Position numbers and translations under genes: made by a program
In this document: piece by piece, positions 4,268-29,959 of the stretch
How the letters are laid out: every line of letters begins with the position of its first letter
Position numbering within the stretch: position 1 is the first letter of the stretch
The notes under the pieces: generated by a model
The model's input: only the letters and a program-made list of their open reading frames with translations
Told to the model about the DNA's origin: nothing
Database searches by the model: none
Source of the DNA: Candidatus Saccharimonadota bacterium
GTDB taxonomy: Bacteria; Patescibacteriota; Gracilibacteria; BD1-5; UBA6164
NCBI GenBank assembly: GCA_965227835.1
Contig: OZ245768.1
Location: 1,260,001 to 1,292,000, forward strand
Length of the DNA: 32,000 nucleotides
Direction of reading: 5' to 3'

Positions 4268-4346
4268 GCGGGGGTAACATAACAGAGTGAGTGTACTAAG
4301 GCTTCAACCCTTGGGTGTGCGAGTTCAAACCTCGTCCCCCGCTCCA
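4268..4346 (+). tRNA. tRNA-Gly(UCA), the TGA-decoding tRNA of genetic code 25 (CCA encoded)
   Basis: Cloverleaf folded by hand. Acceptor GCGGGGG/CCCCCGC, discriminator T then CCA. T arm GCGAG-TTCAAAC-CTCGT. Anticodon arm TAAGG-CTTCAAC-CCTTG with anticodon TCA at 4304-4306, U33 and A37. 5-nt variable loop. G1:C72, C2:G71, G3:C70 and U73 are the bacterial GlyRS identity set. Confidence 0.85.
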
Positions 4347-6253: not shown

Positions 6254-7486
6254 ATGAGTCTTTTAAAAAATCTTAGTAAACATTTAAAGGCTTTTTTGGT
6301 TACAAAATTTTTTGCATACAGCCAAGAGGCATTTTTTAAATTTTTAATAAATATCTACTTTTGGAGAATAACCAATGATATATCATTTCTTATCCTGTAT
6401 AATATTATATTTGAGTTTGCTCATACCTTGACTTACTTTCCTTCCTGAAAAATTAGTAAAGAGTATAATAGGTTTTTTCCTTTACGTATAGGTCTAGTTT
6501 TACAGTTTGTTTTTCTTGGTTTGATCCTTTTTCTTAAAGAAGATATTATTCAATACATAATTCCAGTCGCATTAATTGGAGGTATTGCACATGGAGCTTA
6601 TTGGAGTTCAGATAATCTATTAAAATTTGACCTTACAAATCCTAAAAATAGATTAAAGTTTACAGCAATACACCATATATTAAAGCAAATAGCTTATTCA
6701 TTGGTTCCTTTAATAGCAAGCTTATTGGTTATTAATAACTGAAATATTGTTTCTTCTTATGCAGAAATTTTTACTGCTTCAATGATTTTTACCTTCTTGG
6801 CATTAATTTCAACCTTCTTTATTTCAAAACAAAATAGCTTTGTTAAAAATAAATATTCCCCAATAAAAACATGAACTGCCTTGCTAAAAGATAAAAATAT
6901 TAGGACTGCTTTTATATCCACATTTTTGAGTTATATTGCGGACATATTACCCCTATTATTAGGACTTGTTTTATTTTTTTCTAGTGGAACTGAGCTTTCA
7001 ATTGGTAGTTATCAATTTATTACAGTTTTAATGGCTGTTATAGTTAACTACTTAGTAGGAAAATATTACTCGCAAAAAGATTATAAAAAGTTATTAATAT
7101 ATTGAGGGCTAATAAATTTTGCACTAATCTTTATTCTACTAATTAAGCAGGATTTCATTTCCATTTTGATTTATGGAATTTTAAGTAGCATTTTTTCGGT
7201 TGCCAATAATCCTTTTTACCCCTTGATTCAAGATTCATTGAGTATGTATGCCAAGAATAAAAAACATTTACTGGACATCAGAGTTGAGTTCATGACTTTG
7301 ATAGAAATTTCTGTTATGCTTGGTAAAATTTCAGGTCTATTATTTTTATTAATAATTCATTTTAATTTAGGTTTTAATACTATAGCTATAACAGCAATTA
7401 TCTTTGCCTTTGCTAAATTACTATCAAATTTCTATGTAACAAAAATCAAAGGAGATAAATTTATTACAATAGATTCCATAAATTAA
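6254..7486 (+). CDS. MFS-type multi-TM transporter
   Basis: Four track ORFs (6254, 6521, 6881, 7166) are in one frame, separated only by TGA. 410 aa and about 12 hydrophobic segments. The family call is generic. Confidence 0.65.
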
Positions 7487-7494
7487 TTAATCCA

Positions 7495-8100
7495 ACACTA
7501 AACCACCAGCTCTGCTGGTGCGAGTAGTGCAGGTTTTACCGTTCCGGTAGTTGTGTATAATCTTCTAGGAAGCACCTAGGAGGGGAATAACTTTTTAAAA
7601 ATATGTCCCACAAATACGCAAAGCAGTCCCATGTGAATTGGGACTGCACTTACCACATAGTGGTGGTACCAAAGTACCGAAAAAAAATACTTTTTCAATC
7701 AGTTAGAAAAGATATACGAGACACATTTCATGAACTTGCAAAGAGATATGATTTTGAGATATTAAAATGAAATATAACGATAGATCATGTTCATCTCGTT
7801 TTGAGGATATCTCCAAAATACTCTGTTGCAGAAATTCTGTGAAGATTGAAATGAAAGAGTGCAATAATACTTCATAACAAACATAGTAAGAAGAAATGAC
7901 TGTACTCGAAGAATTTCTGGAGTAGATGATACTATGTAAGTACAGTTTGACTTGACTTGGATATGATAAAAAATTATGTTCAACATCAGCAACATAAGGA
8001 TAAAACCATTGATGGAAATCAGTTAGATTTAAACTGGTAAAAACTATTTTAGCCCCTTCTAGGGGCTTCCATTTAAAGCTACCAGTTCTACTGGTAGATA
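7495..8100 (+). mobile_element. IS200/IS605-family element A (TnpA only; ends approximate)
   Basis: The tnpA gene is flanked by related subterminal hairpins: CACCAG-CTCTG-CTGGTG (7504-7520) and TACCG-TTC-CGGTA (7537-7549) on the left, AGCCCC-TTCT-AGGGGCT (8051-8067) and CTACCAG-TTCT-ACTGGTAG (8079-8097) on the right. There are no terminal inverted repeats, as expected for this family. Confidence 0.7.
7603..8040 (+). CDS. tnpA: IS200/IS605 family Y1 (HUH) transposase TnpA
   Basis: 145 aa. HVNWDCTYHIVVVPKYRKK..ITIDHVHLVLRISPKYSVAEILGRLKGKSA..FWSRGYYVSTVGLD shows the HUH motif and the catalytic Tyr region. 6 TGA=Gly codons. Confidence 0.9.
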
Positions 8101-8124
8101 TTTACTAAAAACCAAAAAGTCATT

Positions 8125-8823
8125 TTTATTTCAACACATCGGGATAAAAACCCCTATCTTTAGATAGTTAAGACACGGAAGGTGTAAGTGATAGAAATTG
8201 AATAAATGAGATGTGTTGTGACATAGGGTTTTAAACCCCGTTGCCTTCAGGCCGATTCTAAAGAAAAAAGTGTAAAAAATCAATAGAATAAATAAAATAG
8301 TGTTAAAAACTAACACTAGAGAGAATGAAATACCAAAAAAGTAGTCATGCGACATATGATGTCAGATACCATATAGTATGGATAACAAAATACAGAAATC
8401 CATTCATGACAAAAGAGATACAAGATAGATTGGAAAAGATCATAAGATGAATAAGTAAAAAGCTATGAGTAATAATAATAAAGATATGAATGGAAGAAGA
8501 TCATGTACATATGTATTGTAGGATACCGTTAACTAAACCAATATCTACAATAGTATGACATATAAAGTGAGAAAGTTCTAAGGCAATAAAGAGGTATTTT
8601 TACAAAGAAATTAAGAGATGGTATTGGAAGACATGAAATATATGGTGAGTATGATATTTTGTATCTAGTGTATGAGAGATAAATTGAGAAATAATATCTA
8701 ATTATGTGGAACAACAGTGAGAAGAAGAGAATAAGATTGAAGAGATAGAGCTTTAAATTTCAGTACAAATAAAAGCCCCGTGCCTTCAGGCCGGGGTAGA
8801 AGAAAAGCTAAAACTTTTTTACT
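8125..8823 (+). mobile_element. IS200-like element B, copy 1 (apparently intact)
   Basis: 699 bp repeated at 12066-12763 with only 3 differences by eye. Related imperfect hairpins around GCC-TTCA-GGC lie near both ends (about 8237-8254 and 8776-8797). Stem-loop AGTGTTA-AAAAC-TAACACT (8299-8317) sits just before the tnpA start. Confidence 0.85.
8325..8756 (+). CDS. tnpA: IS200 family Y1 (HUH) transposase TnpA
   Basis: 143 aa. SSHATYDVRYHIVWITKYRNPF..MEEDHVHMYCRIPLTKPISTIVGHIKGESSKAI..NIWGVGYFVSSVGEINGEIISNYVEQQ. 12 TGA=Gly codons. TAA stop at 8754-8756. Confidence 0.9.
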
Positions 8824-8956
8824 TGTAAAAATAAAGTTTTATATATTTACCCACTTAGTTCAACCTAATTCAAATTTTTTAAAAAACTGATTTTCATGAA
8901 TCCAGAAATATCAAAAAAAGAAAAAAAGGTAGATTTTCAAACCAAATGTTTATTTT

Positions 8957-9853
8957 CTAAACAATAAAATAAATACCGGATAAGATTATAATTATTGAAA
9001 ATCATTTCCTAAAAAGCTCTTTTTTAGATAAGTCTTCTTTTATATATTTAGGGAAAATCAAAGATAAAATAATTCCTAAAATGAAGATAAAAACATACTG
9101 TATGTTTGTAATTGAATGTGACAAAGAAACAATAGATATTGTAAAAACGAAATTTAAGAGTATGGCTGCACATACATCTAAAAAATCATTTAACACAAAT
9201 AAAGACAATGTCTTTTTTGAGAATTTTTTGTAACATCTTATAATTTCTTCTCTTTCTTTTTTCAATAAAAGAAGAATTAGAAAAGCAAGAAAACTACCTA
9301 AAGTTATATAAGTTTGAATTGATAAAAAATCATAAAAAATTGATAAATATTTAATTGAGGCATAATGTGATGCTAGCAAAAAAGTACAAATTAGCATGTA
9401 AAATAATACTTTTCTTATCTTAAATATTGATAAAAGGTTTTTACTTGTAATTAGAATTGAGCCAAATAAGACTACAAAAATTCCTACAATTTGTAAAAAT
9501 TCAATCTCTTCTTTCAGCAAAAAAATATCAAATATAAATGTAAAAATAGTAACTAAACTAAAAAGTGGGAGTACTTTTGTCGTTTCTTCTATTTCTAATG
9601 ATTTTACATAAAAGATAAAACAATATATGTATATTATCCCTGAAATTATTGAAATAAGTATGTGTTTTAGCTTTATAATCTCAAAACCATTTATTAAGAT
9701 TAAAAGTATTAGTGTTGGTAATAGAAGTAGTCTTGTATAAAATATAAATGATGTTTGTCTTTTGATGTGAGATGTTATCAAAAATTTATCTAAAAAGCTT
9801 AAAATACTCCAAATAAGAGGTGGTATTAAAGATAAAATAATCCAAAGTTCCAT
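8957..9853 (-). CDS. EamA/DMT family transporter with a 15-aa read-through tail
   Basis: Track ORF 9002-9853 (283 aa, about 10 TM, EamA-like) has no internal TGA and ends at TGA 9002-9004. Under code 25 it continues as G-FSIIIILSGIYFIV to TAG 8957-8959. Confidence 0.7.
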
Positions 9854-9864
9854 ATAAAATATTC

Positions 9865-10014
9865 TTATTTTCTAAATTCACTCCTACATTTTTTGGAGCA
9901 AAATTTGATCTCTTCAAAATTGTTTTTCCATTTTTTTCTTATCGTAAAATCCCTTTCACAATTTAAACATTTTTTATATTCTTTGAATTGTCCTCTATCT
10001 AGGATTTTAGTCAT
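9865..10014 (-). CDS. DUF2256-like small zinc-binding protein
   Basis: 49 aa. KKCLNCERDFTIRKKWKNNFEEIKFCSKKCRSEF matches the C-x2-C..RKKW..W..CS-x2-CR pattern of DUF2256. It ends 11 nt upstream of the EamA start. Confidence 0.7.
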   Translation of the reverse strand: MTKILDRGQFKEYKKCLNCERDFTIRKKWKNNFEEIKFCSKKCRSEFRK

Positions 10015-10079
10015 TTTGTTGTTTCTTAGTTTGATAAAAATTGAGAATAGTTATTAATTTTTTATTTTCTCCCACCTTT

Positions 10080-10409
10080 TTATAATATTTCTTTTATCTT
10101 CTTTTTCATTTCTGCTGTTTCTCCTGAATCTATAATTTTTTCATCAAGAAGTATCCTAGAAGTTCCATTTTCACTGTCTTTTACAAGTATGTAGATTTTC
10201 CATCATTTTAGCTTACATACTTTTTCCCATAAATTTCTAAGATTTACTCTATCTTTTGATGTTATTTCTAGATATTTTTTCTTTAGTGCATTTTCATATT
10301 TTATATTTTCATACTTATACAAGTGATGAGGAACTCATCTTGATCCTATTTTTGATCATGATTTTTTACCTCTTTTTAAGTTATCTATATGTTCAAGTTT
10401 TATTTTCAT
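10080..10409 (-). CDS. hypothetical protein (109 aa)
   Basis: Open frame with 3 TGA=Gly codons. No motif recognised. Confidence 0.45.
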
Positions 10410-10561
10410 TTTCGTTTTTCTTTAGATTTCCATGTTCATCAGTATGAATAATATTCTGATTTTTTTGCTTTTATAAGGCATTTTGGGCAAACAATAATCC
10501 ATTCTATATTTTGGTTTTGTTTTATTCGATATCAATGATTAAAACTAACTTTACATAAAGG

Positions 10562-11761
10562 GTCTGTTGCGTTTTGATTTTAAAAAGAGTTTTAATTAAA
10601 AAATGTAGTAAATAGATGAAAAATTTATAAGTTTCATCTATTTTTTGTTAAATTATAATCATATTTATATAAAATTTAGGATTTTAGACACAATCCACCT
10701 AAGGAAACTAACCTAGGTTATTCGGATTTCCTCTAAAACAACCAATCTTTTGAGATTAAAAGATATAGCCTCCATAAATGCAGTAAACTGGTTTTTTACT
10801 ACAGACTTATACCTCACTCTATGATTCATTTTTGAAAATACCCTCTCATAAGGAGATCTAAGTTTAGAATAAAACTTATCTTTATCCTTGTTCTTATCTT
10901 TCATATTATTTTTCTTTATTGCACATAGATGTAATCACTTCTTTTTTGTTGATATTACAGCCGGTCAAATACAATATCACTTATCAGCATATACTGCTCA
11001 TGAACTTGGTAATACATGCTTCATTCACTTTGCATCTGTTACATTAGCTTGAGTTATAGCTATCTTGTTTATCATTCAAGATTGCATATCAACACTAGCA
11101 TGTTTTTTATAACCATACCAAAATTTATTTTTTCACTTAGATCAAATTTTAGCTTCCTTATCATTAGCAACTTTTGGAAGAGTTTCATTATTCATTTTTT
11201 CATATCATTCTTTTATTCATTTATCTCTTTCTTCCCATAAATTAGCTTTAGTAACTAAATGAGAAGCATCTACAAATGTAAACACTTCACTCATATAACC
11301 CTTATTTGATAATTGATTTTTTAAATCTTCAAATATCTTTGATAGTTCTTTTGTTCATATCTTTTTTCTTGCTCTTGAGAATATACTATGATCTGGAGTT
11401 TTATCTGTTAATTTAAATCAGCAAAACCATTTACCAGCTAAATTTTCTGCAAGATATTTCTCTAACTCTCTATCTGATAGATCTTCCATAAACTGGATTA
11501 GTAAACATAGAAATAATTTTTTTACTCAATATCATACATGAGTTTTTCATAGATCTATATTTTTTAGTATTTTATTTACTCAATCAAAGTTCCACAATTT
11601 CTTAAATTTACGATATTGATGATTTTCTGGAATTAGCTCGTTTAGGATAACAAAACTTATTTGATTTGATTCTCACATAGGTATTTTCTTAGAATATAAT
11701 TACTATCTAATTATATCTCTTTTTTCTCTTTTTAATAGTCAAAGTTTAATTTACAACAAGC
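10562..11761 (-). mobile_element. IS5-family insertion sequence (IS903-group-like), 1200 bp
   Basis: Imperfect terminal repeats GTCTGTTGCG (left) and GCTTGTTGTA (right, reverse complement). It is flanked by 9-bp direct repeats ACATAAAGG (10553-10561) and TCATAAAGG (11762-11770), 8/9 identical. A 12-bp-stem hairpin at 10610-10643 lies downstream of the transposase stop. Confidence 0.8.
10713..11678 (-). CDS. IS5 family DDE transposase
   Basis: 321 aa with TGA=Gly. LIQFMEDLSDRELEKYLAENLAGKWFCGFKL..PDHSIFSRARKKIG (DUF772-like N-terminus), FVDASHLV, KFWYGYKKHASVD..ITQANVTDAK, AVYADKGY, RSPYERVFSKMN..NQFTAFMEAISFNLKRL. Confidence 0.9.
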
Positions 11762-11823
11762 TCATAAAGGACAGATTTTATTTGGCATATTAATTCATTT
11801 TTAGAGTTTATATTGATATATTT

Positions 11824-11847
11824 CAAAAGGCTAAAGCCTTCTGTTGA
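11824..11847. repeat. palindromic repeat family, copy 2
   Basis: CAAAAGGCTAAAGCCTTCTGTTGA. Confidence 0.7.
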
Positions 11848-11940
11848 TTTAGAAATTTTAAATATTTATAGTAATCTCACTTGCAATTTAGAATATTTTA
11901 AAATAAAATTTTTAATTTGGAAAATAATTTTTGTTATTTG

Positions 11941-11965
11941 TCAACAAAGGGCTTTAGCCCTTTGA
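11941..11965. repeat. palindromic repeat family, copy 3 (inverted)
   Basis: TCAACAAAGGGCTTTAGCCCTTTGA. Confidence 0.7.
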
Positions 11966-12023
11966 TCTTGTGAGAAGTTTATCTTTTTGAAAAAATATTA
12001 CCCAGTTTATTTATCATATATAT

Positions 12024-12051
12024 AGTAAACTAACTTGCAAGTTAGTTTACT
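12024..12051. repeat. 28-nt perfect palindrome
   Basis: AGTAAACTAACTTG/CAAGTTAGTTTACT, 14 nt from the left end of IS200-B copy 2. A degenerate relative (ACTTACAAGTTAGTTTA) lies at about 26599-26615. Confidence 0.8.
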
Positions 12052-12065
12052 GTAATAGCAAATTC

Positions 12066-12763
12066 TTTATTTCAACACATCGGGATAAAAACCCCTATCT
12101 TTAGATAGTTAAGACACCGAAGGTGTAAGTGATAGAAATTGAATAAATGAGATGTGTTGTGACATAGGGTTTTAAACCCCGTTGCCTTCAGGCCGATTCT
12201 AAAGAAAAAAGTGTAAAAAATCAATAGAATAAATAAAATAGTGTTAAAAACTAACACTAGAGAGAATGAAATACCAAAAAAGTAGTCATGCGACATATGA
12301 TGTCAGATACCATATAGTATGGATAACAAAATACAGAAATCCATTCATGAAAAAGAGATACAAGATAGATTGGAAAAGATCATAAGATGAATAAGTAAAA
12401 AGCTATGAGTAATAATAATAAAGATATGAATGGAAGAAGATAATGTACATATGTATTGTAGGATACCGTTAACTAAACCAATATCTACAATAGTATGACA
12501 TATAAAGTGAGAAAGTTCTAAGGCAATAAAGAGGTATTTTTACAAAGAAATTAAGAGATGGTATTGGAAGACATGAAATATATGGTGAGTATGATATTTT
12601 GTATCTAGTGTATGAGAGATAAATTGAGAAATAATATCTAATTATGTGGAACAACAGTGAGAAGAAGAGAATAAGATTGAAGAGATAGAGCTTTAAATTT
12701 CAGTACAAATAAAAGCCCCGTGCCTTCAGGCCGGGGTAGAAGAAAAGCTAAAACTTTTTTACT
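12066..12763 (+). mobile_element. IS200-like element B, copy 2 (ends intact, transposase dead)
   Basis: 698 bp, collinear with 8125-8823. The differences are G/C at 8177 vs 12118, a 1-nt deletion (C8410 missing between 12350 and 12351), and C/A at 8502 vs 12442. Confidence 0.85.
12266..12696 (+). pseudogene. tnpA pseudogene (frameshift plus HUH His-to-Asn)
   Basis: The 1-nt deletion after codon 28 runs into a TAA about 10 codons later. Independently, the first His of DHVH is changed to Asn (CAT to AAT at 12441-12443). Confidence 0.8.
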
Positions 12764-12832
12764 CCTATAAACTCGCTTGCAATTTTTTCACCTCTTTCAT
12801 TTCTTTACCTAGATTTAAAATAGTTCTAAAAA

Positions 12833-14116
12833 CTATTCCTTAGGTATAGATATAGCAGGATTTAGATTTATACTTGTTTTATCATTTTTGTTTGAACCAC
12901 AAAACACAACTTTTGAAATATCAGGTAGAAATAAATCAAGATCTTTTTGTTCTATACTATTTTCTTTACCTTCCTCTCTATCTTTTCTTATTGCCACATA
13001 CATTTCATAAACTTTTAATCTATTGAGAGTTTCTATTCTTAGTTTTTTAGTAGAAATATAGTTGTAAATTAAAAAAGATAAAAGAGTAAAAAAGAGCAAA
13101 GAGCTAGGAAGTAGAAAATAAATAAATTTATTAGAGGTTTCTATAAAATCTTTTATTTCTTGAAAATGGAATATGACTAAACTAACACTTAAAATTAAAT
13201 AAATTATTAATGCTAAAAGCCAGATTCTCTCTGCTCCAAAAAAACCAGAATCAAGAAAAAATTTTTTAGTTTTTCCCCAAAAATTTTCCCCTTTCTTCTC
13301 TCCATATAAAAGTTCTTTTAGTGGTTTTGAGAAGCCTTTAACACTTTCTAATTTTTCTTGGTCTTTCTTAAAAATTTCCCATAATTCTTTATATTCATTT
13401 GAAGATTTTGAGATTTCTTTTTCTGCTTCTTCATATTTTCCAAGTTTATCTAGATAAATAGCTTTATGGTAATAAGCCTTATAGTAATATGGATTTATTT
13501 TTATTGCTTTTTCATATTGTTCTACTGCTTCTTCATATTTCCAGAGTTCAGCCAAAGTATTCCCCTTATTATGGTAGGCTTCAGCATAACTTGAATTTAT
13601 TTCTATAGCTTTATCATATTCTTTTATTGCATCTCCATATCTTTTAAGGTTCTTTAACGATATACCTCTATTATTATAAGCCTCAAAATAATCTTTTTTT
13701 ATTTTTATAGCTTTATCAAGCTCTATTATAGCTTCCTCAAATTTTTTAAGTTTATTTAGGCAAAGCCCCTTATTATTATAAGGAAACACAAATTCAGAAT
13801 TTATTTTTATAGCTTTATCATACTCTTTTATTGCCTCTTCATATTTTCCAATTTCTTCAAGACAGTATCCTTTGTTATTATAAGCATAATGAGATTCAGG
13901 ATTTATTTTTATAGCTTTATCATACTCCTCTATAGCTTCCTCATATTTTCTAAGTTCAGACAAAGAAACACCTTTCCAATAATAAGCTTCAAAATAATCT
14001 TCTTTTATTTTTATAGCTTCATCATATTTTTTTATAGCTTCTTGGTGATTTCCTAAAGTACCCAAAGAATAACCCTCATCAAAATATTTCTTAGCATTAT
14101 CATTTACTTCACTCAT
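12833..14116 (-). CDS. TPR-repeat protein with C-terminal transmembrane segments
   Basis: 427-aa uninterrupted ORF. About 7 tandem 34-aa repeats (EEAIKEYDKAIKINP..AYNNKG.), then two hydrophobic helices. 19 Gly, none encoded by TGA. Confidence 0.85.
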   Translation of the reverse strand: MSEVNDNAKKYFDEGYSLGTLGNHQEAIKKYDEAIKIKEDYFEAYYWKGVSLSELRKYEEAIEEYDKAIKINPESHYAYNNKGYCLEEIGKYEEAIKEYDKAIKINSEFVFPYNNKGLCLNKLKKFEEAIIELDKAIKIKKDYFEAYNNRGISLKNLKRYGDAIKEYDKAIEINSSYAEAYHNKGNTLAELWKYEEAVEQYEKAIKINPYYYKAYYHKAIYLDKLGKYEEAEKEISKSSNEYKELWEIFKKDQEKLESVKGFSKPLKELLYGEKKGENFWGKTKKFFLDSGFFGAERIWLLALIIYLILSVSLVIFHFQEIKDFIETSNKFIYFLLPSSLLFFTLLSFLIYNYISTKKLRIETLNRLKVYEMYVAIRKDREEGKENSIEQKDLDLFLPDISKVVFCGSNKNDKTSINLNPAISIPKE

Positions 14117-14133
14117 ATTTCTATTAATTAATT

Positions 14134-15612
14134 CTAAAAAGTATTTCTCTCTATAAATTCACTTGCAATTTTTTTCATCTCTATCAATTCCTCTTCACCC
14201 TTTTTTTCAAGCATTTTCGTCATCATACTCATCCTGACATTTTTCTCAAAAACTTTTTTATTATCATCTATAAAACTCCAATAAAGTGAATCCAAAACTC
14301 TACACCAGCTGTCTTTTTTATAATTAGACATCTTTAAAATATAGTTACTCCCACAAATATAAGGCTTTGTAGCAAAAACTCATCCATCACTATATTGCCC
14401 CATCCCATAAACATTTCCATACATAACCCAATCCAAACTATCTACAAACATTTCCATAAACCACCTATAAACCTCATCAGGTTTAATTCTACACAAAAGC
14501 ATAATATTTGAAACAACCATAAGCCTGTCAATATGGTTTAAATAACCGTATTTAACTACCTTTTTAATAGTATTATCAAGAGGTAATATCCCAGTTTTAC
14601 CATTGTACCAGTTATTATTTAGTCTATTCTTATGATTAAAAAAATTCTTATTTAAAGAGAAATTGTTATAAACTCCCCTCATAAACTCCCTCCATCCAAT
14701 TACTTGTCTTATAAAACCCTCAATATTGTTTATCTCAACATTATTTTGTGTAAAATATTCAAGTATTCTTGAAACCACATATTTTGGAGATAAAAGCCCA
14801 GAGTTTAGATAAGGAGAAATAACACTATGAAACAAAAAAGTTTCTTCATCTATTGAATCTTGATATTTTCCAAAATATTGAAACCTCTCATCCAAAAACT
14901 TATCAAACCATACTTTGCAAGTCTCAAAATCAGTTGCCAAATAAAAACTATCACTCTCTCAAAAATTATCCTTGAAATATTTATCGACTATTTTTTTCAC
15001 ATCTTCTAAATTCCTGTTTTCTATATCCATTTTAATTTGAGGGATAAAAGTGTTTTTTGGAAGTTTTTTTCTATTCTCACTATCAAAACTCCATTTATTA
15101 AAAAGAGGTTTTTTGTTATCATCTACCAATACATTTAGCTTTTTTCTCATCAAAATATAAAACGAATTCATAAAAGGTTTATTTAAAGCATCTTTTAAAT
15201 ATTGTCTGAAATCATCATTTGAACATAAAAAATTTGGACTTTCAATCATTTCAAGATCAATTTTTTTTGTATTACAAAAACTCTCAATCCTATTTCTAAA
15301 AAACTTATCTTCTATAAAATAAGTTTTTATTTTTTCTATGTTTTTTTCCAAACAAACCTTTTCAAGTTTTCCCTCAAAACTCAAATTAAAATCTTCTTCA
15401 ATTTCTATATAGCTAAGATTAAAATTTTGAGAAATAAGAAAATCTCTATAATTTCTCATAGAAGCAAGAAAGAAGATTATTTTGTGTTTATGAAATTTAA
15501 AATGAGTGCAAAGACCATAATCTTCACACATAAAAAATAAATCTTTTCTTTTTGGATTTAAAAAGCTCAAATCAGAAAAAAGCTGGTTACCTAAAATTAA
15601 ATTTAGATTCAT
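14134..15612 (-). CDS. cryptochrome/photolyase-related protein (COG3046-like)
   Basis: Track ORFs 14959-15612, 14380-14940 and 14134-14331 are in one frame, joined by 2 TGA codons. 492 aa. FGKYQDSI..LFHSVISPYLNSGLLSP..IRQVIGWREFMRGVY..GYLNHIDRLMV..ATKPYICGSNYILKMS..WCRVLDSLYWSFI fits the photolyase-related family. Confidence 0.8.
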
Positions 15613-15635
15613 AAAAACATTTAATAAAAATACAC

Positions 15636-16421
15636 ATGAAAGATTTTATAATTTTACTCCCAAATTCCAAGTCTAAAAATCCAGATAACAAATTTGAAAA
15701 ATACGAAAAAGTGCTTGAAGACAAAAAAGATAATTTTTTTATTGAGCTAAAAAATCAAAGAAAACTAGTTTATGAAAGTTTGTTTGAGTTAATAAACAAT
15801 AATTCTTTTGAAACACTTAAAAAAATCTTTGAACTAAAAGATGATAATAAGCTGGAAAGAGAAATACACCAAATTAAAAACTTTTTCTCAAATGAGACAA
15901 ACTATTCTATATTTAAATTCAGTTGAGTTATGTTTAAAGCAATAGATTATAATTCTTTAAAAGAAAACCAAAAAGAGAATTTCAACGATAAAGTTATTTT
16001 TATAGATTCTCTTTTTGGTCTTTTAAAACCACTTGATAAAATCCCAAACTATAAACTAGAATTTACAACAAGATTTAGTTTTAATCTAAAAAATTTTTGG
16101 GAAAAAGATTTAGAAAGCTTTTTTGAAACTACCATAAAAAAAGACTTTTTAATAATTGATTTACTTCCCCAAACACACAAGGTTTTTAATAAAAAAATCT
16201 CTCAAAATAAAAACTATTTTGAGATAAATTTTTTTGAAGAGAAAAGCTGAGTATTCAAAAATGTATGACATAAATCTAAAAAACTAAAATGAGAACTAAT
16301 AAACTATTTATGTAGTTTTGATAAAATAGACTTAAACATTTTGAAGGAATTTAAACACAGTGAAGGTTTTGAAATCAATATAGGTCTTTGAGATGAAAAC
16401 AGAATTATTTTTAGTAAGTAG
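15636..16421 (+). CDS. yaaA: YaaA/UPF0246 (DUF328) peroxide-stress family protein
   Basis: 261 aa with 5 TGA=Gly codons. IILLPNSKSK.., FSGVMFKAIDY.., VIFIDSLFGLLKPLDKIPNYKLEF.., NFWEKDL.., IIDLLPQTH fit the YaaA pattern. Confidence 0.75.
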
Positions 16422-16440
16422 TTTCATTCTTTTCTAAAAC

Positions 16441-16472
16441 TAAAGACAAGGGGTCTTGACCCCTTGCTAATA
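16441..16472. repeat. 32-nt direct repeat, copy 1 (contains terminator-like palindrome CAAGGGGTC-TT-GACCCCTTG)
   Basis: TAAAGACAAGGGGTCTTGACCCCTTGCTAATA is 31/32 identical to 18021-18052. Confidence 0.85.
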
Positions 16473-16524
16473 CTCAATCTAAAGGACGAATTTATGTTTT
16501 GGAAAATTTAATTTTTATCCCTTT

Positions 16525-17517
16525 TTATACGATAGAAATTGATTCATTCTTGAAATTTGAATTTACTTTTTCCAAAATTACTGTTGCCGTTTCCGTTTCA
16601 TTATTACAATCTTCACTTTTCTTTACAATTTCCCAATACCCAGCACCACTTGTTTCACCATCAGCTATATTTTGATATATTCCTATTTTTCCCCTTGGAA
16701 TTTCTTTTAACGATGTTACATATATCATATCAACTAGTTTAGAGTCCCCAATCTTAATCCTCAAAGTATCTCCAATAAGCTTATTTCCAAATTTATTTTT
16801 AAACTTATTGTTATCTTTTACAGAAATTCTAACATTACCAAATTTGTCGGAGAAGGCAAACTCTGCGAGATTTTTTTGTTGCGGAATTACATCTGGATGT
16901 TGTCCTGATTTTTTTCTTTCTAATAATTCTTCCACACTCTCGTATTGAAAGATTGGCTCTAAGATTTCGGGGAAGTATCTTGTTGTTGCAATAATAGAAG
17001 AACGAAATTGTTCACGAGTTCAGTCGGTAACATATAGCTTTTCATTTGGAATGCGATACAAGGCAAGAATTTTATTTCGTGTTTCAAGGGCCTGCAACCT
17101 TGTTAGTGGTACAGCATAGATTTCTAACCCGTTGTTTGTAATTGCCAAATGAAAATTTTCACCGTTTTTACCACCAGCAGTTGTATGGCTATTTCTATCT
17201 GCTTTGTTCACAATAGAAATTACTGCTTTGCCCGAGAAATCTCGATTAACTACTTTTCCAGTTTTTTTCTGAATTAGTTTGATAATTCTCTGTTGTTCTG
17301 CGATCAAGTCATTGAGCAAATTTATTCCATAGTCAGCCAGTTTTGGATTTTGACCAATAGGAAATCTTAAATCTGAAAAATTTCCAAGATTGCGAGTTGT
17401 GGCTGTTAATTCTGCATCTAGATCTATAGGATTTTCTGCAAAAACATCGTTAAAATGAACTATCCCACTTGTTGAACGTTCAAGTAAGTATTGATATGGT
17501 TTTATTATTTTTGTCAT
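16525..17517 (-). CDS. hypothetical protein, 330 aa (the C-terminal part is faintly like the DUF62 SAM-hydrolase beta-barrel)
   Basis: Track ORFs 17020-17517 and 16525-16935 are in frame, joined by a single TGA at 17020-17022. It looks visibly more G+C-rich than its surroundings. SDKFGNVRISV..GDTLRIKIG..IPRGKIGIYQN recalls the D-x-FGN C-terminal domain, but this is a weak motif-level impression only. Confidence 0.65.
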
Positions 17518-17859: not shown

Positions 17860-18006
17860 TGGTTCTATTTTTTATACAGTAAGTAAGAGGTTTTTTGATA
17901 TATCTTTCCTTTTATATAAATAAGTAATGTTTTTAAAAAGTTTAGCATTAGTATTTTTCACCCAGAAAAAGCATTCTTAAAATCAGTTGCCAAATAAGAA
18001 CTATCA
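17860..18006 (-). pseudogene. decayed fragment of a photolyase-related paralog
   Basis: 17979-18006 is 27/28 identical to 14926-14953 inside the intact gene. In the same frame it reads DSSYLATDFKNAFSGGKILMLNFLKTLLIYIKGKIYQ, against DSFYLATDFETCKVWFDKFLDERFQYFGKYQ in the intact gene, then hits a stop. Confidence 0.35.
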
Positions 18007-18020
18007 TTTTACACAAAAAT

Positions 18021-18052
18021 TAAAAACAAGGGGTCTTGACCCCTTGCTAATA
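18021..18052. repeat. 32-nt direct repeat, copy 2
   Basis: TAAAAACAAGGGGTCTTGACCCCTTGCTAATA. On the minus strand the hairpin is followed by a T-run, so it is the likely terminator of the 21166-18183 operon. Confidence 0.85.
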
Positions 18053-18125: not shown

Positions 18126-18149
18126 TCAACAGAAGGCTTTAGCCTTTTG
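18126..18149. repeat. palindromic repeat family, copy 4 (inverted)
   Basis: TCAACAGAAGGCTTTAGCCTTTTG. Confidence 0.7.
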
Positions 18150-18182: not shown

Positions 18183-18410
18183 CTATAAATCACCCAATCA
18201 AGACCCACTCTCTACAGAATCAGAAGCTCCAGAAAATACTTCTAAATCCCTTGATTCTATAAGCCTTTGCAATTCTTCTGGAGTTAGAGAATGTTCTACA
18301 GGATAGCTATGATTTCAAAAAAACATCAAAATTCAAACCCCTACAACAGATACAATTATTCAAAACAAAGCCAAAAAAGCAAAAATTTTTACCACTGCAT
18401 TTCTTTTCAT
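18183..18410 (-). CDS. small membrane protein (75 aa)
   Basis: MKRNAVVKIFAFLALFGIIVSVVGVGILMFFG.. has one TM region and 5 TGA=Gly codons. It starts 26 nt after the stop of the upstream 909-aa gene. Confidence 0.5.
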
Positions 18411-21250: not shown

Positions 21251-21274
21251 AAAAGGCTAAAGCCTTCTGTTGAC
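21251..21274. repeat. palindromic repeat family, copy 6
   Basis: AAAAGGCTAAAGCCTTCTGTTGAC, 9 nt from copy 5. Confidence 0.7.
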
Positions 21275-28681: not shown

Positions 28682-29959
28682 ATGAATAAAAATATAGAAG
28701 ATGAAACTTCTCAAAGACCTGATGAAGATATAAATAAATCAGAAGGAATAGACACAACTAGAGAAATAAAACGTAGAATATTGGCTATTAGAGATTGAAA
28801 AAATCCAGAGAGTTGAGAAGAATCAATAGATAGATTCAGTAAATTAAAAATGTTGAAGCAAATAAAAGGTTCTTGGGATTATATATCTTATTATAAAGAT
28901 GATTTTATATTCGTCAGAAAAGGTAGAAAATGGTGATTTGTTGATAAAGAATGAGGCTTGATTTCAGATTTGTATGATGGGATAATGAGATTCTCAGAAG
29001 GTTTTGCTGTAGTTAGAAAAGAGGGAAAATGTGGACTTGTTGATAAAGAATGAAACTTAATTTCAGATTTGTATGATGAAATAACAAGATTCTCAGAAGA
29101 TTTTGCTGTAGTTGAAAAAGATGAAAAATGGTGATTTATTAATAAAAAATGAGAAGAGGTTTTAGGAGGTATAATCTATAATAATGTATGGTATTTTTCA
29201 GAAGGTCTTGCTCCGGTCGAAGAATATGGATGGTGATTCATTGATAAAAATTGAAAAAAAGTTTGAAAATGTTCTTATGATTATGTTAGTAATTTTTCAG
29301 GAGGTTTTGCTGCAGTTAAAAAAGGTAAAAAATGGGGATTTATTGACAAAGATTGAAATGAAGTTTTAGGAGGTATAATCTATAATCATGTATATAATAG
29401 TTTTTCAGGAGGTTTTGCTGCAGTTAAAAAAGGTGAAAAATGGGGATTTATTGACGAAGATTGAAATGAAGTTTTAGGAGGTTTTATCTATGATTATGTA
29501 TATAATGATTTTTCAAGAGGTTTTGCTGCAGTTGAAAAAAATGGAAAATGAGGATTCATTGATAAAGATTGAAATGAAGTTTTAGGAGGTTTCATCTATG
29601 ATCACATGGAAGGTTTTTCATGAGATTTTGCTATAGTTAAAAAAGATGGAAAATGGGGATTTGTTGACAAAGATTGAAATGAAGTCTTAGGGGACTTAAT
29701 CTATGATCGTATAGAAAATTTTTCAGGAGGTTTTGCTGCGGTTAAAAAAGGTGAAAAATGGTGATTTATTAATAAAAAATGAGAAGAGGTTTTAGGAGGT
29801 ATAATTTATGATTATGTATGAGATTTTTCATGAGGATGCAGTTTGGTTAAAAAATCTTGACAATTACCATTTTATATAAATAAAGATTGAGATATTCTTG
29901 AATATGAAGAGGGTGTAGGGATGGAACATATACACTACAAAATATTAAGTAAATACTAA
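28682..29959 (+). CDS. WG-repeat (KWG-type beta-propeller-like repeat) protein
   Basis: 425 aa. About 11 tandem units of the form Y(D/N)xVxxFSxGFAxVKKxGKWGFI(D/N)KxGxEVLGG. The G of KWG is TGA in several units (e.g. 28934-28936). Confidence 0.85.

Follow-up and report, generated by a model that had tools for sequence, protein, structure and literature searches.

TGA-Poor Genes in an Accessory Island of a Code 25 Bacterium: Probable Import from Standard-Code Organisms

INTRODUCTION

Foreign genes that settle in genomic islands reportedly drift from the codon signature of their donor toward that of the host, a process that Lawrence and Ochman are said to have described as amelioration. The present work deals with a signal of this type in a 32,000-nucleotide stretch of DNA from a bacterium of the Gracilibacteria (GenBank assembly GCA_965227835.1, contig OZ245768.1, positions 1,260,001 to 1,292,000 of the forward strand), which is referred to as the window and whose genes read TGA as glycine (genetic code 25). 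At about 6.2 to 17.5 kb, the window contains what is probably a mosaic accessory island, with several genes derived from standard-code organisms. The glycine codons of these genes are almost never TGA.

TGA-free, code 11-compatible phages were predicted for Gracilibacteria and Absconditabacteria by Liu et al. (2023; PMC10746230) and were read as fitting both codes, and prophages of these bacteria were reported to be TGA dense (PMC10746230). In the available part of the article by Moreira et al. (2021; PMC8080830), 126 acquired genes are described for Vampirococcus lugosii (Absconditabacteria), for which the transfers were found by gene trees, and Campbell et al. (2013) are cited for an argument of evolutionary isolation. 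A term search of the article returned no use of the per-gene TGA fraction of glycine codons for detecting or dating transfers. An earlier note on the DNA of the window, made from its sequence, had known of no such clock of horizontal gene transfer (HGT) in recoded genomes, and a non-exhaustive literature search found no report of one. The same note had proposed a one-way leak of the code barrier; the import side of this proposal is partly supported here, and both the idea and TGA-free genetic elements in code 25 hosts have already been published (PMC10746230 and PMC8080830).

What is reported here can be classed as codon amelioration in a variant form, observed on a real HGT island. As in amelioration, the genes form an accessory cluster associated with insertion sequences (IS), and the extent of drift is taken as a measure of the time elapsed after arrival. 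However, the marker is here a reassigned stop codon that is impossible in frame in the donor, so that the start is exactly zero. Furthermore, the TGA signal is independent of a GC difference and flags two genes, encoding a photolyase-related protein (PhrRel) and a TPR protein, that are missed by ordinary codon usage tests, and the barrier is asymmetric, in that a gene with acquired TGA is not exportable intact. Like the TGA-free phages (PMC10746230), the locus has coding sequences without in-frame TGA that are usable in a code 25 host, but these are cellular chromosomal genes with no phage genes nearby, and some of them contain a few TGAs. With the Vampirococcus inventory (PMC8080830), it shares gene gain from diverse donors and a code that is discussed as a direction-dependent barrier.

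RESULTS AND DISCUSSION

TGA is rare among the glycine codons of a set of accessory genes

The window has a GC content of 26%, and open reading frames (ORFs) with a minimum of 100 amino acids cover 81% of the whole window with table 25 versus 30% with table 11. In regions 2 and 4 of rpoD, conserved glycines are written as in-frame TGA (e.g., ...LIQEgNVgL...), and a Gly codon of standard-code orthologues, not a Trp codon, was found opposite the in-frame TGA at 7 of 8 aligned sites. The window genes use code 25 (TGA = Gly) of the Gracilibacteria/Absconditabacteria type, and the sister contigs likewise use code 25. Outside the island, a tRNA with the anticodon UCA is encoded on the plus strand at positions 4268 to 4346 (ARAGORN anticodon tca; 46 bits with the Rfam tRNA model). 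Its GCG... acceptor stem and the T (U73) ahead of CCA are what we take to be Gly-like identity elements, and this tRNA is almost certainly the decoder of TGA as Gly. ARAGORN labels it SeC (selenocysteine), though its length is normal.

A total of 27 to 28 genes were defined in the window. The left flank comprises a hisS fragment, a permease gene, rpoD, frr, the tRNA(UCA) gene, and the genes of two small enzymes, and the right flank comprises the genes of two large surface-type proteins, secE-nusG, greA, dnaN, the gene of a WG-repeat protein, and others. Between them lies the accessory stretch, which is composed of the genes for an MFS transporter, IS200_A, IS200_B, EamA, DUF2256, orf109, an IS5-type element, a second IS200_B, the TPR protein, PhrRel, YaaA, and a protein that is termed DUF62-like below. 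Expressed as TGA versus GGN codons, the counts for core genes were 12/6 for the hisS fragment, 17/3 for dnaN, 11/3 for nusG, and 7/1 for greA, as compared to 0/19 for TPR, 2/17 for PhrRel, 1/20 for the DUF62-like gene, 1/7 for EamA, and 0/1 for DUF2256. The values for yaaA and orf109 were 5/3 and 3/4, respectively, and 4 of the 19 Gly codons of the MFS gene at 6254 to 7486 are TGA. Hand counts made previously differ from this recount by at most one codon.

The TGA share was found to be heterogeneous across 26 genes (chi2 = 137, df 25, p = 2e-17). Once the five low genes and the WG-repeat gene were removed, the remaining genes were homogeneous, with a TGA share of 0.69 (p = 0.14). Binomial tails against this value were P(0/19) = 2e-10 for TPR, P(<=2/19) = 2e-7 for PhrRel, P(<=1/21) = 1e-9 for the DUF62-like gene, P(<=4/19) = 2e-5 for MFS, and P(<=1/8) = 0.0016 for EamA. 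The near-avoidance of TGA-Gly that had been noticed in TPR, PhrRel, the DUF62-like gene, EamA, and DUF2256 is thus confirmed, these genes, together with MFS, being strong low outliers with respect to 0.69. Resident genes write 69% of their Gly codons as TGA, 11% as GGA, and 15% as GGT, as opposed to 9% TGA, 37% GGA, 34% GGT, and 16% GGG in the TGA-poor set. GGA is fully absent from rpoD, dnaN, hisS, greA, and the IS5-type gene.

All TGA-poor genes are located inside positions 6254 to 17517, where they are interleaved with IS200 and IS5 elements. This agrees with the clustering in an IS-rich accessory stretch that was claimed by the earlier note; of the span it had given (8957 to 17517), the left limit does not hold, as the set reaches the MFS gene. 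The IS transposases of the same stretch have 85 to 100% TGA, and the region and a presumably low expression do not, therefore, alone cause TGA avoidance. Strand bias was considered as a cause and rejected, because the TGA-rich rpoD, dnaN, and IS5 genes are on the minus strand like the TGA-poor genes.

A bimodal distribution of the TGA share had also been suggested. In the window alone it is not established, since a mixture of two binomials fits no better than one beta-binomial. It is supported in a pooled sample of 48 genes, each with 8 or more Gly codons, which includes 26 ORFs of six sister code 25 contigs: a two-component mixture, in which 12% of the genes make up a low component (p = 0.08) next to a main mode at 0.70, is superior to a single beta-binomial (likelihood ratio test, 15.2; p about 5e-4). 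One of the sister contigs carries a gene for a secreted HExxHxxGxxH metalloprotease (L089:5274-5945) in which none of 11 Gly codons is TGA, whereas its neighbors have 50 to 100% TGA. This gene is an example of the same phenomenon in a related genome. The gene of the WG-repeat protein (28682 to 29959; TGA, 22/63) was rejected as a case of intermediate age. Its codon choice is set by the position in the repeat, with ..KD[TGA]NE.. always having TGA and ..VL[GGA][GGT].. always having GGN, which implies that the repeats were copied after the codons were set. Because the repeats were copied with their codons, the value of 22/63 does not represent 63 independent observations.

Deviation from host genes was also assessed by z-scores of non-Gly codon usage. 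Usage was atypical for the DUF62-like gene (z = -6.8), MFS (z = -4.8), and IS200_A (z = -6.4) and host-like for TPR (z = +1.4) and PhrRel (z = -0.7), with a value of z = -1.8 for EamA. The compositional deviation that had been expected of TGA-poor genes is therefore present in the DUF62-like and MFS genes but not in TPR and PhrRel. Together, TGA share and ordinary codon usage define four classes of genes: native genes, genes imported from other code 25 genomes, and genes imported from standard-code donors of either similar or dissimilar composition. PhrRel and probably TPR belong to the imports from compositionally similar standard-code donors, and the DUF62-like and MFS genes belong to those from compositionally dissimilar ones.

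The DUF62-like gene has its nearest relatives on standard-code contigs

The gene at 16525 to 17517 (minus strand; TGA, 1/21) is the GC-richest gene of the window, with 33%. It had been labeled an orphan, a term that does not apply, since 48 homologues were found and it belongs to a family of about 48 proteins. Its nearest relatives are on contigs L086 (75% identity; GC, 32%), L001 (71%; GC, 35%), and L002-4 (64%; GC, 38%). The assemblies of L001 and L002-4 bear the name Patescibacteria (for L001, Patescibacteria group bacterium). All of these contigs are standard-code contigs: table 11 gives an ORF coverage of 81 to 91%, and a TGA stop ends one L086 gene.

The protein encoded is a divergent, putative member of the DUF62/SAM hydrolase-halogenase type, for which a two-domain SAM_HAT (DUF62/SAM hydrolase/fluorinase-chlorinase) fold is predicted. 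The AlphaFold model has a predicted local distance difference test score of 91.6, and a Foldseek search with this model returned 32 significant matches, all of the DUF62/SAM_HAT superfamily (probability, 1.0; TM-score up to 0.64 when normalized to the target). At the sequence level, the SAM_HAT_C score of 13.8 bits is below the Pfam cutoff of 25.5, a weak SAM_HAT_C match was seen in 36 of 46 family members, and no sequence match was found for the N-terminal domain. With the solved DUF62/SAM_HAT members the protein would share the fold, but sequence identity is only 9 to 15% and it is about 70 residues longer.

A three-gene block is shared with an archaeal-looking standard-code contig

The most notable single result is a block of three genes that has the same order, and 77 to 79% identity, in this code 25 bacterium and on a standard-code contig that looks archaeal. 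The block consists of PhrRel, DUF2256, and yaaA. PhrRel (14134 to 15612, minus strand; TGA, 2/19) is a photolyase-related gene of the DPRP family (CryPro/(6-4) photolyase homologue), with the Pfam domains DPRP (PF04244; E = 6e-56) and photolyase FAD-binding (PF03441; E = 3e-7). DUF2256 (9865 to 10014, minus strand; Pfam DUF2256, E = 1e-12; TGA, 0/1) encodes a zinc-ribbon protein, and yaaA (15636 to 16421, plus strand; Pfam H2O2_YaaD, E = 2e-33; TGA, 5/8) encodes a member of the peroxide-stress protein family.

The nearest relative of PhrRel is P0053 on contig L005, with 79% identity. Other matches had at most 53% identity (8000 database candidates scored) and, among the matches listed, belong to Bacteroidota, Pelagibacteraceae, Bdellovibrionota, and a few archaea. 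The best 80 PhrRel loci from species-representative genomes, which include neither the window genome nor that of L005, had at most 52% identity. L005, recorded as ctg48402 of ERZ25074195, is a 103.8-kb contig with a GC content of 24.8% that uses the standard code, as six of its genes have a TGA stop. DUF2256 and yaaA are also 79% and 77% identical, respectively, to L005 genes (yaaA at L005:1941-2735), and the order and orientation yaaA<- ->PhrRel ->DUF2256 are the same in the window (9865 to 16421) and on L005 (1941 to 13099). The earlier note had taken yaaA to be native, which is contradicted by its identity to the L005 gene and by an order and orientation that match those of the PhrRel and DUF2256 relatives.

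Judging from its gene content, L005 looks archaeal. Its uL15 is matched best by archaeal ribosome chains, next by eukaryotic L27a, and far more weakly by bacterial L15, and HerA-type and Mre11-type genes are present. On L005, nicotinamide adenine dinucleotide-salvage genes and a PLD-type nuclease gene lie between the shared genes, and these insertions differ from those in the window. The sequence comparison points to a transfer of the yaaA/PhrRel/DUF2256 block between the lineages of the window and of L005, or from a common donor, and the shared block looks like the result of an inter-domain exchange or of a shared donor.

Among the 81 loci listed, DUF2256 adjoins PhrRel in 38, and yaaA is beside PhrRel only in the window and on L005. 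In the window, TPR, IS200, IS5, and orf109, which amount to 4.1 kb of insertions, separate PhrRel from DUF2256. Because the pair is conserved elsewhere and split here, the inserted TPR, IS200, IS5, and orf109 came later.

PhrRel shares with the family of PhrB (PDB 4dja) and CryB (3zxs) the DPRP domain, a full-length match (E = 3e-71 with 4dja), and the DUF2256 neighbor, but it differs by the 4.1-kb split of the latter pair and by the lack of the CxxC...C motif. In the solved PhrB/CryPro structures, the cysteines of this motif presumably bind an Fe-S ([4Fe-4S]) cluster. The motif is deleted or replaced in PhrRel (residues about 415 to 445) and is also absent from its nearest relatives, on L005 and in Bacteroidota, Pelagibacter, and Woesearchaeota. 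At the level of sequence, PhrRel and these relatives thus form a subgroup without the motif.

Two further pieces of PhrRel were detected. A degenerate second copy of its 3' end is present at 12748 to 12803 (minus strand; blastn, 77% over 57 nucleotides; E = 2e-6), just downstream of TPR, and a 48-nucleotide fragment of an internal part is present at 17975 to 18022 (minus strand; 87.5% identity; blastn E = 1e-8), upstream of the DUF62-like gene. These fragments suggest a past duplication or recombination of the gene. As further observations on this gene, PhrRel and yaaA are divergently oriented, with annotated starts only 23 bp apart (15612 to 15636); since this gap has hardly room for two promoters, one or both true starts may lie inward. 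The public protein P0052, the translation of 14134 to 15612, has Trp at a TGA site (KYFKDNFW versus KYFKDNFG). This public gene call was made with code 4 and not code 25, and alignments give Gly. If code 4 calls hold genome-wide, most Gly positions carry a wrong residue in the public proteins.

Turnover of glycine codons and time of arrival

Sister code 25 contigs were compared with the window at 66 to 88% amino acid identity. At Gly sites of rpoD, frr, and dnaN that are conserved between the window and the sisters, the combinations were 53 TGA/TGA, 28 TGA/GGN, 18 GGN/TGA, and 17 GGN/GGN. Discordant sites account for 40%, whereas 45.6% would be expected if the states were independent (Fisher p = 0.21). 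Between the window and the sisters, the choice of TGA or GGN is thus essentially randomized, and genes of long residence should therefore be at equilibrium. TGA/GGN turnover is about as fast as the divergence of the window and sister lineages.

In a two-state model with the turnover time constant tau, the split from the sisters was placed at about 1.0 tau per lineage (95% lower bound, 0.57), and the pooled TPR, PhrRel, and DUF62-like genes (3/59) were placed at 0.08 tau (0.015 to 0.23). If drift is neutral, the three genes came in well after the window lineage had separated from the sampled sisters. The identity of 77 to 79% to the L005 genes exceeds the 66 to 75% by which the window and the sisters match in frr and dnaN, which fits an arrival after the sister split.

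Other genes and mobile elements of the island

The TPR protein (12833 to 14116, minus strand; Pfam TPR_1, E = 2.5e-45; TGA, 0/19) has a C-terminal membrane domain. The Gly codons of its gene are 8 GGA, 7 GGT, 1 GGC, and 3 GGG, without any TGA, and the probability of 0 TGA among 8 TGA+GGA codons is 1.4e-7. A third position that varies with no TGA at all is as expected under a code in which TGA is lethal. The gene appears to have been inserted between PhrRel and DUF2256 later than the PhrRel block: it is bracketed by the true PhrRel 3' end (14134 to 14190) and the degenerate one (12748 to 12803), which fits such a later insertion.

The EamA-family transporter gene (8957 to 9853, minus strand; Pfam EamA, E = 8e-15; TGA, 1/8) is weakly supported as an import by its TGA count and its z-score of -1.8. 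The MFS transporter gene (6254 to 7486, plus strand; Pfam MFS_1, E = 1.5e-15; TGA, 4/19) lies outside the span considered previously. The small orf109 (10080 to 10409, minus strand) codes for 109 amino acids, has an intermediate TGA use (3/7), and was without a match in a Pfam scan. We infer a foreign origin for TPR, EamA, and MFS. Judged by the gene annotations, the island cargo would mostly add functions in damage repair, stress, and transport.

The mobility genes of the island are three IS200-type copies and one IS5-type transposase gene. IS200_A (7603 to 8040, plus strand; TGA, 6/7; GC content at third codon positions, 0.32) encodes an IS200/IS605-type transposase that was assigned by reading the translation. 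It is TGA rich yet foreign in codon usage, which suggests that it is exchanged among code 25 organisms of different composition. The first copy of IS200_B (8123 to 8823, plus strand, with the transposase at 8325 to 8756 and the right end set by alignment) has TGA at 11 of 11 Gly codons, and the second copy (12062 to 12763, plus strand) is 99 to 100% identical to it, with a 1-nucleotide indel that frameshifts the transposase. From this identity it follows that the element moved recently. The two copies are in direct orientation, 3.94 kb apart (repeat spacing, 3940 versus 3941), and bracket EamA-DUF2256-orf109-IS5. The IS5/IS1182-type DDE transposase (10713 to 11678, minus strand; Pfam DUF772 and DDE_Tnp_1) has TGA in 17 of 20 Gly codons. 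By their TGA density, the IS200_B and IS5-type transposases are locked to code 25.

Import of TGA-free genes and alternative explanations

Import from standard-code donors, which the earlier note had regarded as the simplest explanation, is supported by homologues for the DUF62-like gene, PhrRel, and DUF2256, whose nearest relatives (64 to 79% identity) are on contigs with TGA as a stop; for TPR and EamA, homologues speak neither for nor against it. For the former three, relatives had been anticipated outside code 25 lineages, and this is where they were found. The following course of events may be envisaged. A TGA in frame acts as a nonsense mutation in the standard-code donor and would be purged, so that genes would arrive with zero TGA and would at once be read correctly by the new code 25 host. 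There, AT-biased mutation, perhaps along with selection for the abundant tRNA-Gly(UCA), would turn GGA into TGA through one G-to-T substitution, and genes of long residence would end up with about 69% TGA and almost no GGA. For the TGA-poor genes, residence would have been short, at roughly 0.08 of the turnover time constant versus about 1 for the sister split. At least two separate sources are visible. One would be the AT-rich, archaeal-looking, standard-code organism with which the yaaA/PhrRel/DUF2256 block is shared, and the other would be represented by the standard-code contigs that share the DUF62-like gene; two of these contigs belong to assemblies with the name Patescibacteria. TPR would have been inserted later between PhrRel and DUF2256, and the code 25-locked, TGA-dense IS200 and IS5 elements would have followed. 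We infer from these data the direction and timing of transfer as well as the neutrality of the GGA-to-TGA drift. Since a standard-code cell cannot make use of a gene that contains sense TGAs, entry into the code 25 lineage is the workable direction.

Several observations weigh against this interpretation. The nearest relatives are only 64 to 79% identical, so that none of them can be taken for the actual donor. The distribution of the TGA share is that of the window and the sister contigs; the six sister contigs have synteny with the window only over rpoD-frr and then diverge, none of them reaching the locus. An absence of PhrRel from other code 25 genomes cannot be drawn from the matches listed. 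TPR and PhrRel are indistinguishable from the host in non-Gly codon usage, and for TPR the only foreign signal is hence the very lack of TGA that is to be explained. Its C-terminal half had no relatives in a metagenome scan (JGI), and a search of representative genomes was dominated by generic multi-repeat TPR proteins, with no listed match that covers residues 250 to 427. For EamA, no relatives were found on viral contigs. A further tension concerns yaaA and PhrRel, which differ in TGA use (5/8 versus 2/19; Fisher p = 0.011) despite their shared link to L005. At sites that are GGA in L005, TGA is present at 4 of 5 in yaaA but at 1 of 11 in PhrRel (p = 0.013), in which the remaining codons are GGA, GGT, or GGG. 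One transfer of both genes with neutral drift thereafter is a poor fit, even though their 95% age intervals overlap, at 0.44 to 0.65 tau. The contrast may be due to separate arrivals, to faster conversion in some genes, or to small-number noise, and faster conversion could possibly reflect selection for the codon read by tRNA(UCA). It follows from this contrast that the TGA share is not a clean per-gene clock, being either noisy or affected by selection.

An unlikely alternative is that code neutrality is maintained, in that TGA-free accessory genes, a mobile element, or a phage keep moving between standard-code and code 25 hosts. Only TGA-free copies would be re-exportable and would replace local alleles, and TGA poverty would then reflect repeated transfer or selection and not just one recent arrival. 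There is a precedent in the TGA-free, code 11-compatible phages of Gracilibacteria/Absconditabacteria, which were argued to be kept so for a broad host range (PMC10746230), and one neutral clock hardly accounts for the contrast of yaaA with PhrRel. The island is also full of mobile elements, but the TGA-dense IS elements among them cannot function in standard-code hosts, and PhrRel, the DUF62-like gene, EamA, and MFS hold 1 to 4 TGAs and are no longer exportable intact. The PhrRel fragments at 12748 to 12803 and 17975 to 18022 suggest repeated recombination. No phage structural, integrase, or conjugation genes were seen in the window, and no phage hallmarks (terminase, portal, capsid, integrase) were recognized in the code 25 translations or in ten Pfam-scanned proteins. 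A phage as the vector was rejected, since scans of viral contigs were negative for yaaA, the family of the DUF62-like protein, and EamA and gave a single, distant match for PhrRel, with 48% identity.

It is less likely still that the genes are native and avoid TGA for a gene-specific reason, such as weak expression or sequence context, without any transfer. The host-like non-Gly codon usage of TPR and PhrRel would be compatible with this, as would the difference between yaaA and PhrRel despite the same L005 link. The replacement of GGA, which is complete in the likely highly expressed rpoD, dnaN, greA, and hisS while GGA is kept in some native genes, hints at a selective component of TGA use. 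However, transposase genes, which are usually weakly expressed, have 85 to 100% TGA, the strand offers no explanation, and AT-biased mutation should favor TGA over GGN. With a TGA/GGN state that is randomized between sisters, old genes should not stay at 0 to 10%, and the DUF62-like gene, PhrRel, and DUF2256 have their nearest relatives in standard-code organisms that belong to other lineages. The least probable explanation, to which we give very little weight, is that the low values come from the tail of a distribution that is simply broad, or that a piece of a standard-code genome was misassembled into the contig. The genes contain just 8 to 21 Gly codons each and, in the window alone, one beta-binomial does as well as a mixture, but the binomial tails of four genes range from 2e-10 to 2e-5 and the 48-gene pool favors a mixture. 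A misassembly is countered by the interleaving of TGA-dense IS200, IS5, and yaaA with TGA-poor genes, by the 1 to 4 sense TGAs that TGA-poor genes carry at Gly positions, which show that the stretch is translated under code 25, and by the database record, in which the locus lies on one contig of 1.49 Mb.

With import from standard-code organisms as the favored explanation, a further-reaching proposal can be made, which we advance only tentatively and consider rather doubtful in its entirety: the TGA share of Gly codons, or TGA/(TGA+GGA), would be a zero-baseline arrival clock that operates even at equal composition of donor and host; several independent arrivals would have taken place well after the sister split; and genes would recently have passed between a DPANN-like archaeon, or else a shared donor, and a recoded bacterium of the candidate phyla radiation. 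If this clock reading is true, codon reassignment is a one-way valve and not a wall, and genes lock in as TGA accrues. Recoded genomes are often called genetically isolated, and this locus shows import from standard-code organisms, apparently including the archaeal gene pool. A simple count of sense TGA per glycine finds imports, such as PhrRel and TPR, that are missed by GC and codon usage tests. Should the pattern be genome-wide, it would permit a cheap listing and rough dating of acquisitions in Gracilibacteria/Absconditabacteria and provide a measure of code-barrier asymmetry. The example of yaaA serves as a warning: with 8 to 20 Gly codons per gene and possible selection on TGA, the clock would be usable on pooled genes only.

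GC-rich hairpins

Two families of GC-rich hairpins were noticed in the otherwise AT-rich DNA. Members of the first family, AAGGGGTCTTGACCCCTT, are located at 16446 to 16467 and 18025 to 18048 and score as intrinsic terminators on the minus strand, after the DUF62-like gene and after a small ORF at 18183 to 18410, respectively. A 58-nucleotide direct repeat and a 26-nucleotide inverted repeat around the DUF62-like gene had been considered as insertion scars; for the 58-nucleotide repeat this was rejected, as it corresponds to the minus-strand terminator hairpin. The second family, AAGGCTAAAGCCTT, is present in three copies, at 11824 to 11847, 18126 to 18149, and 21251 to 21273.

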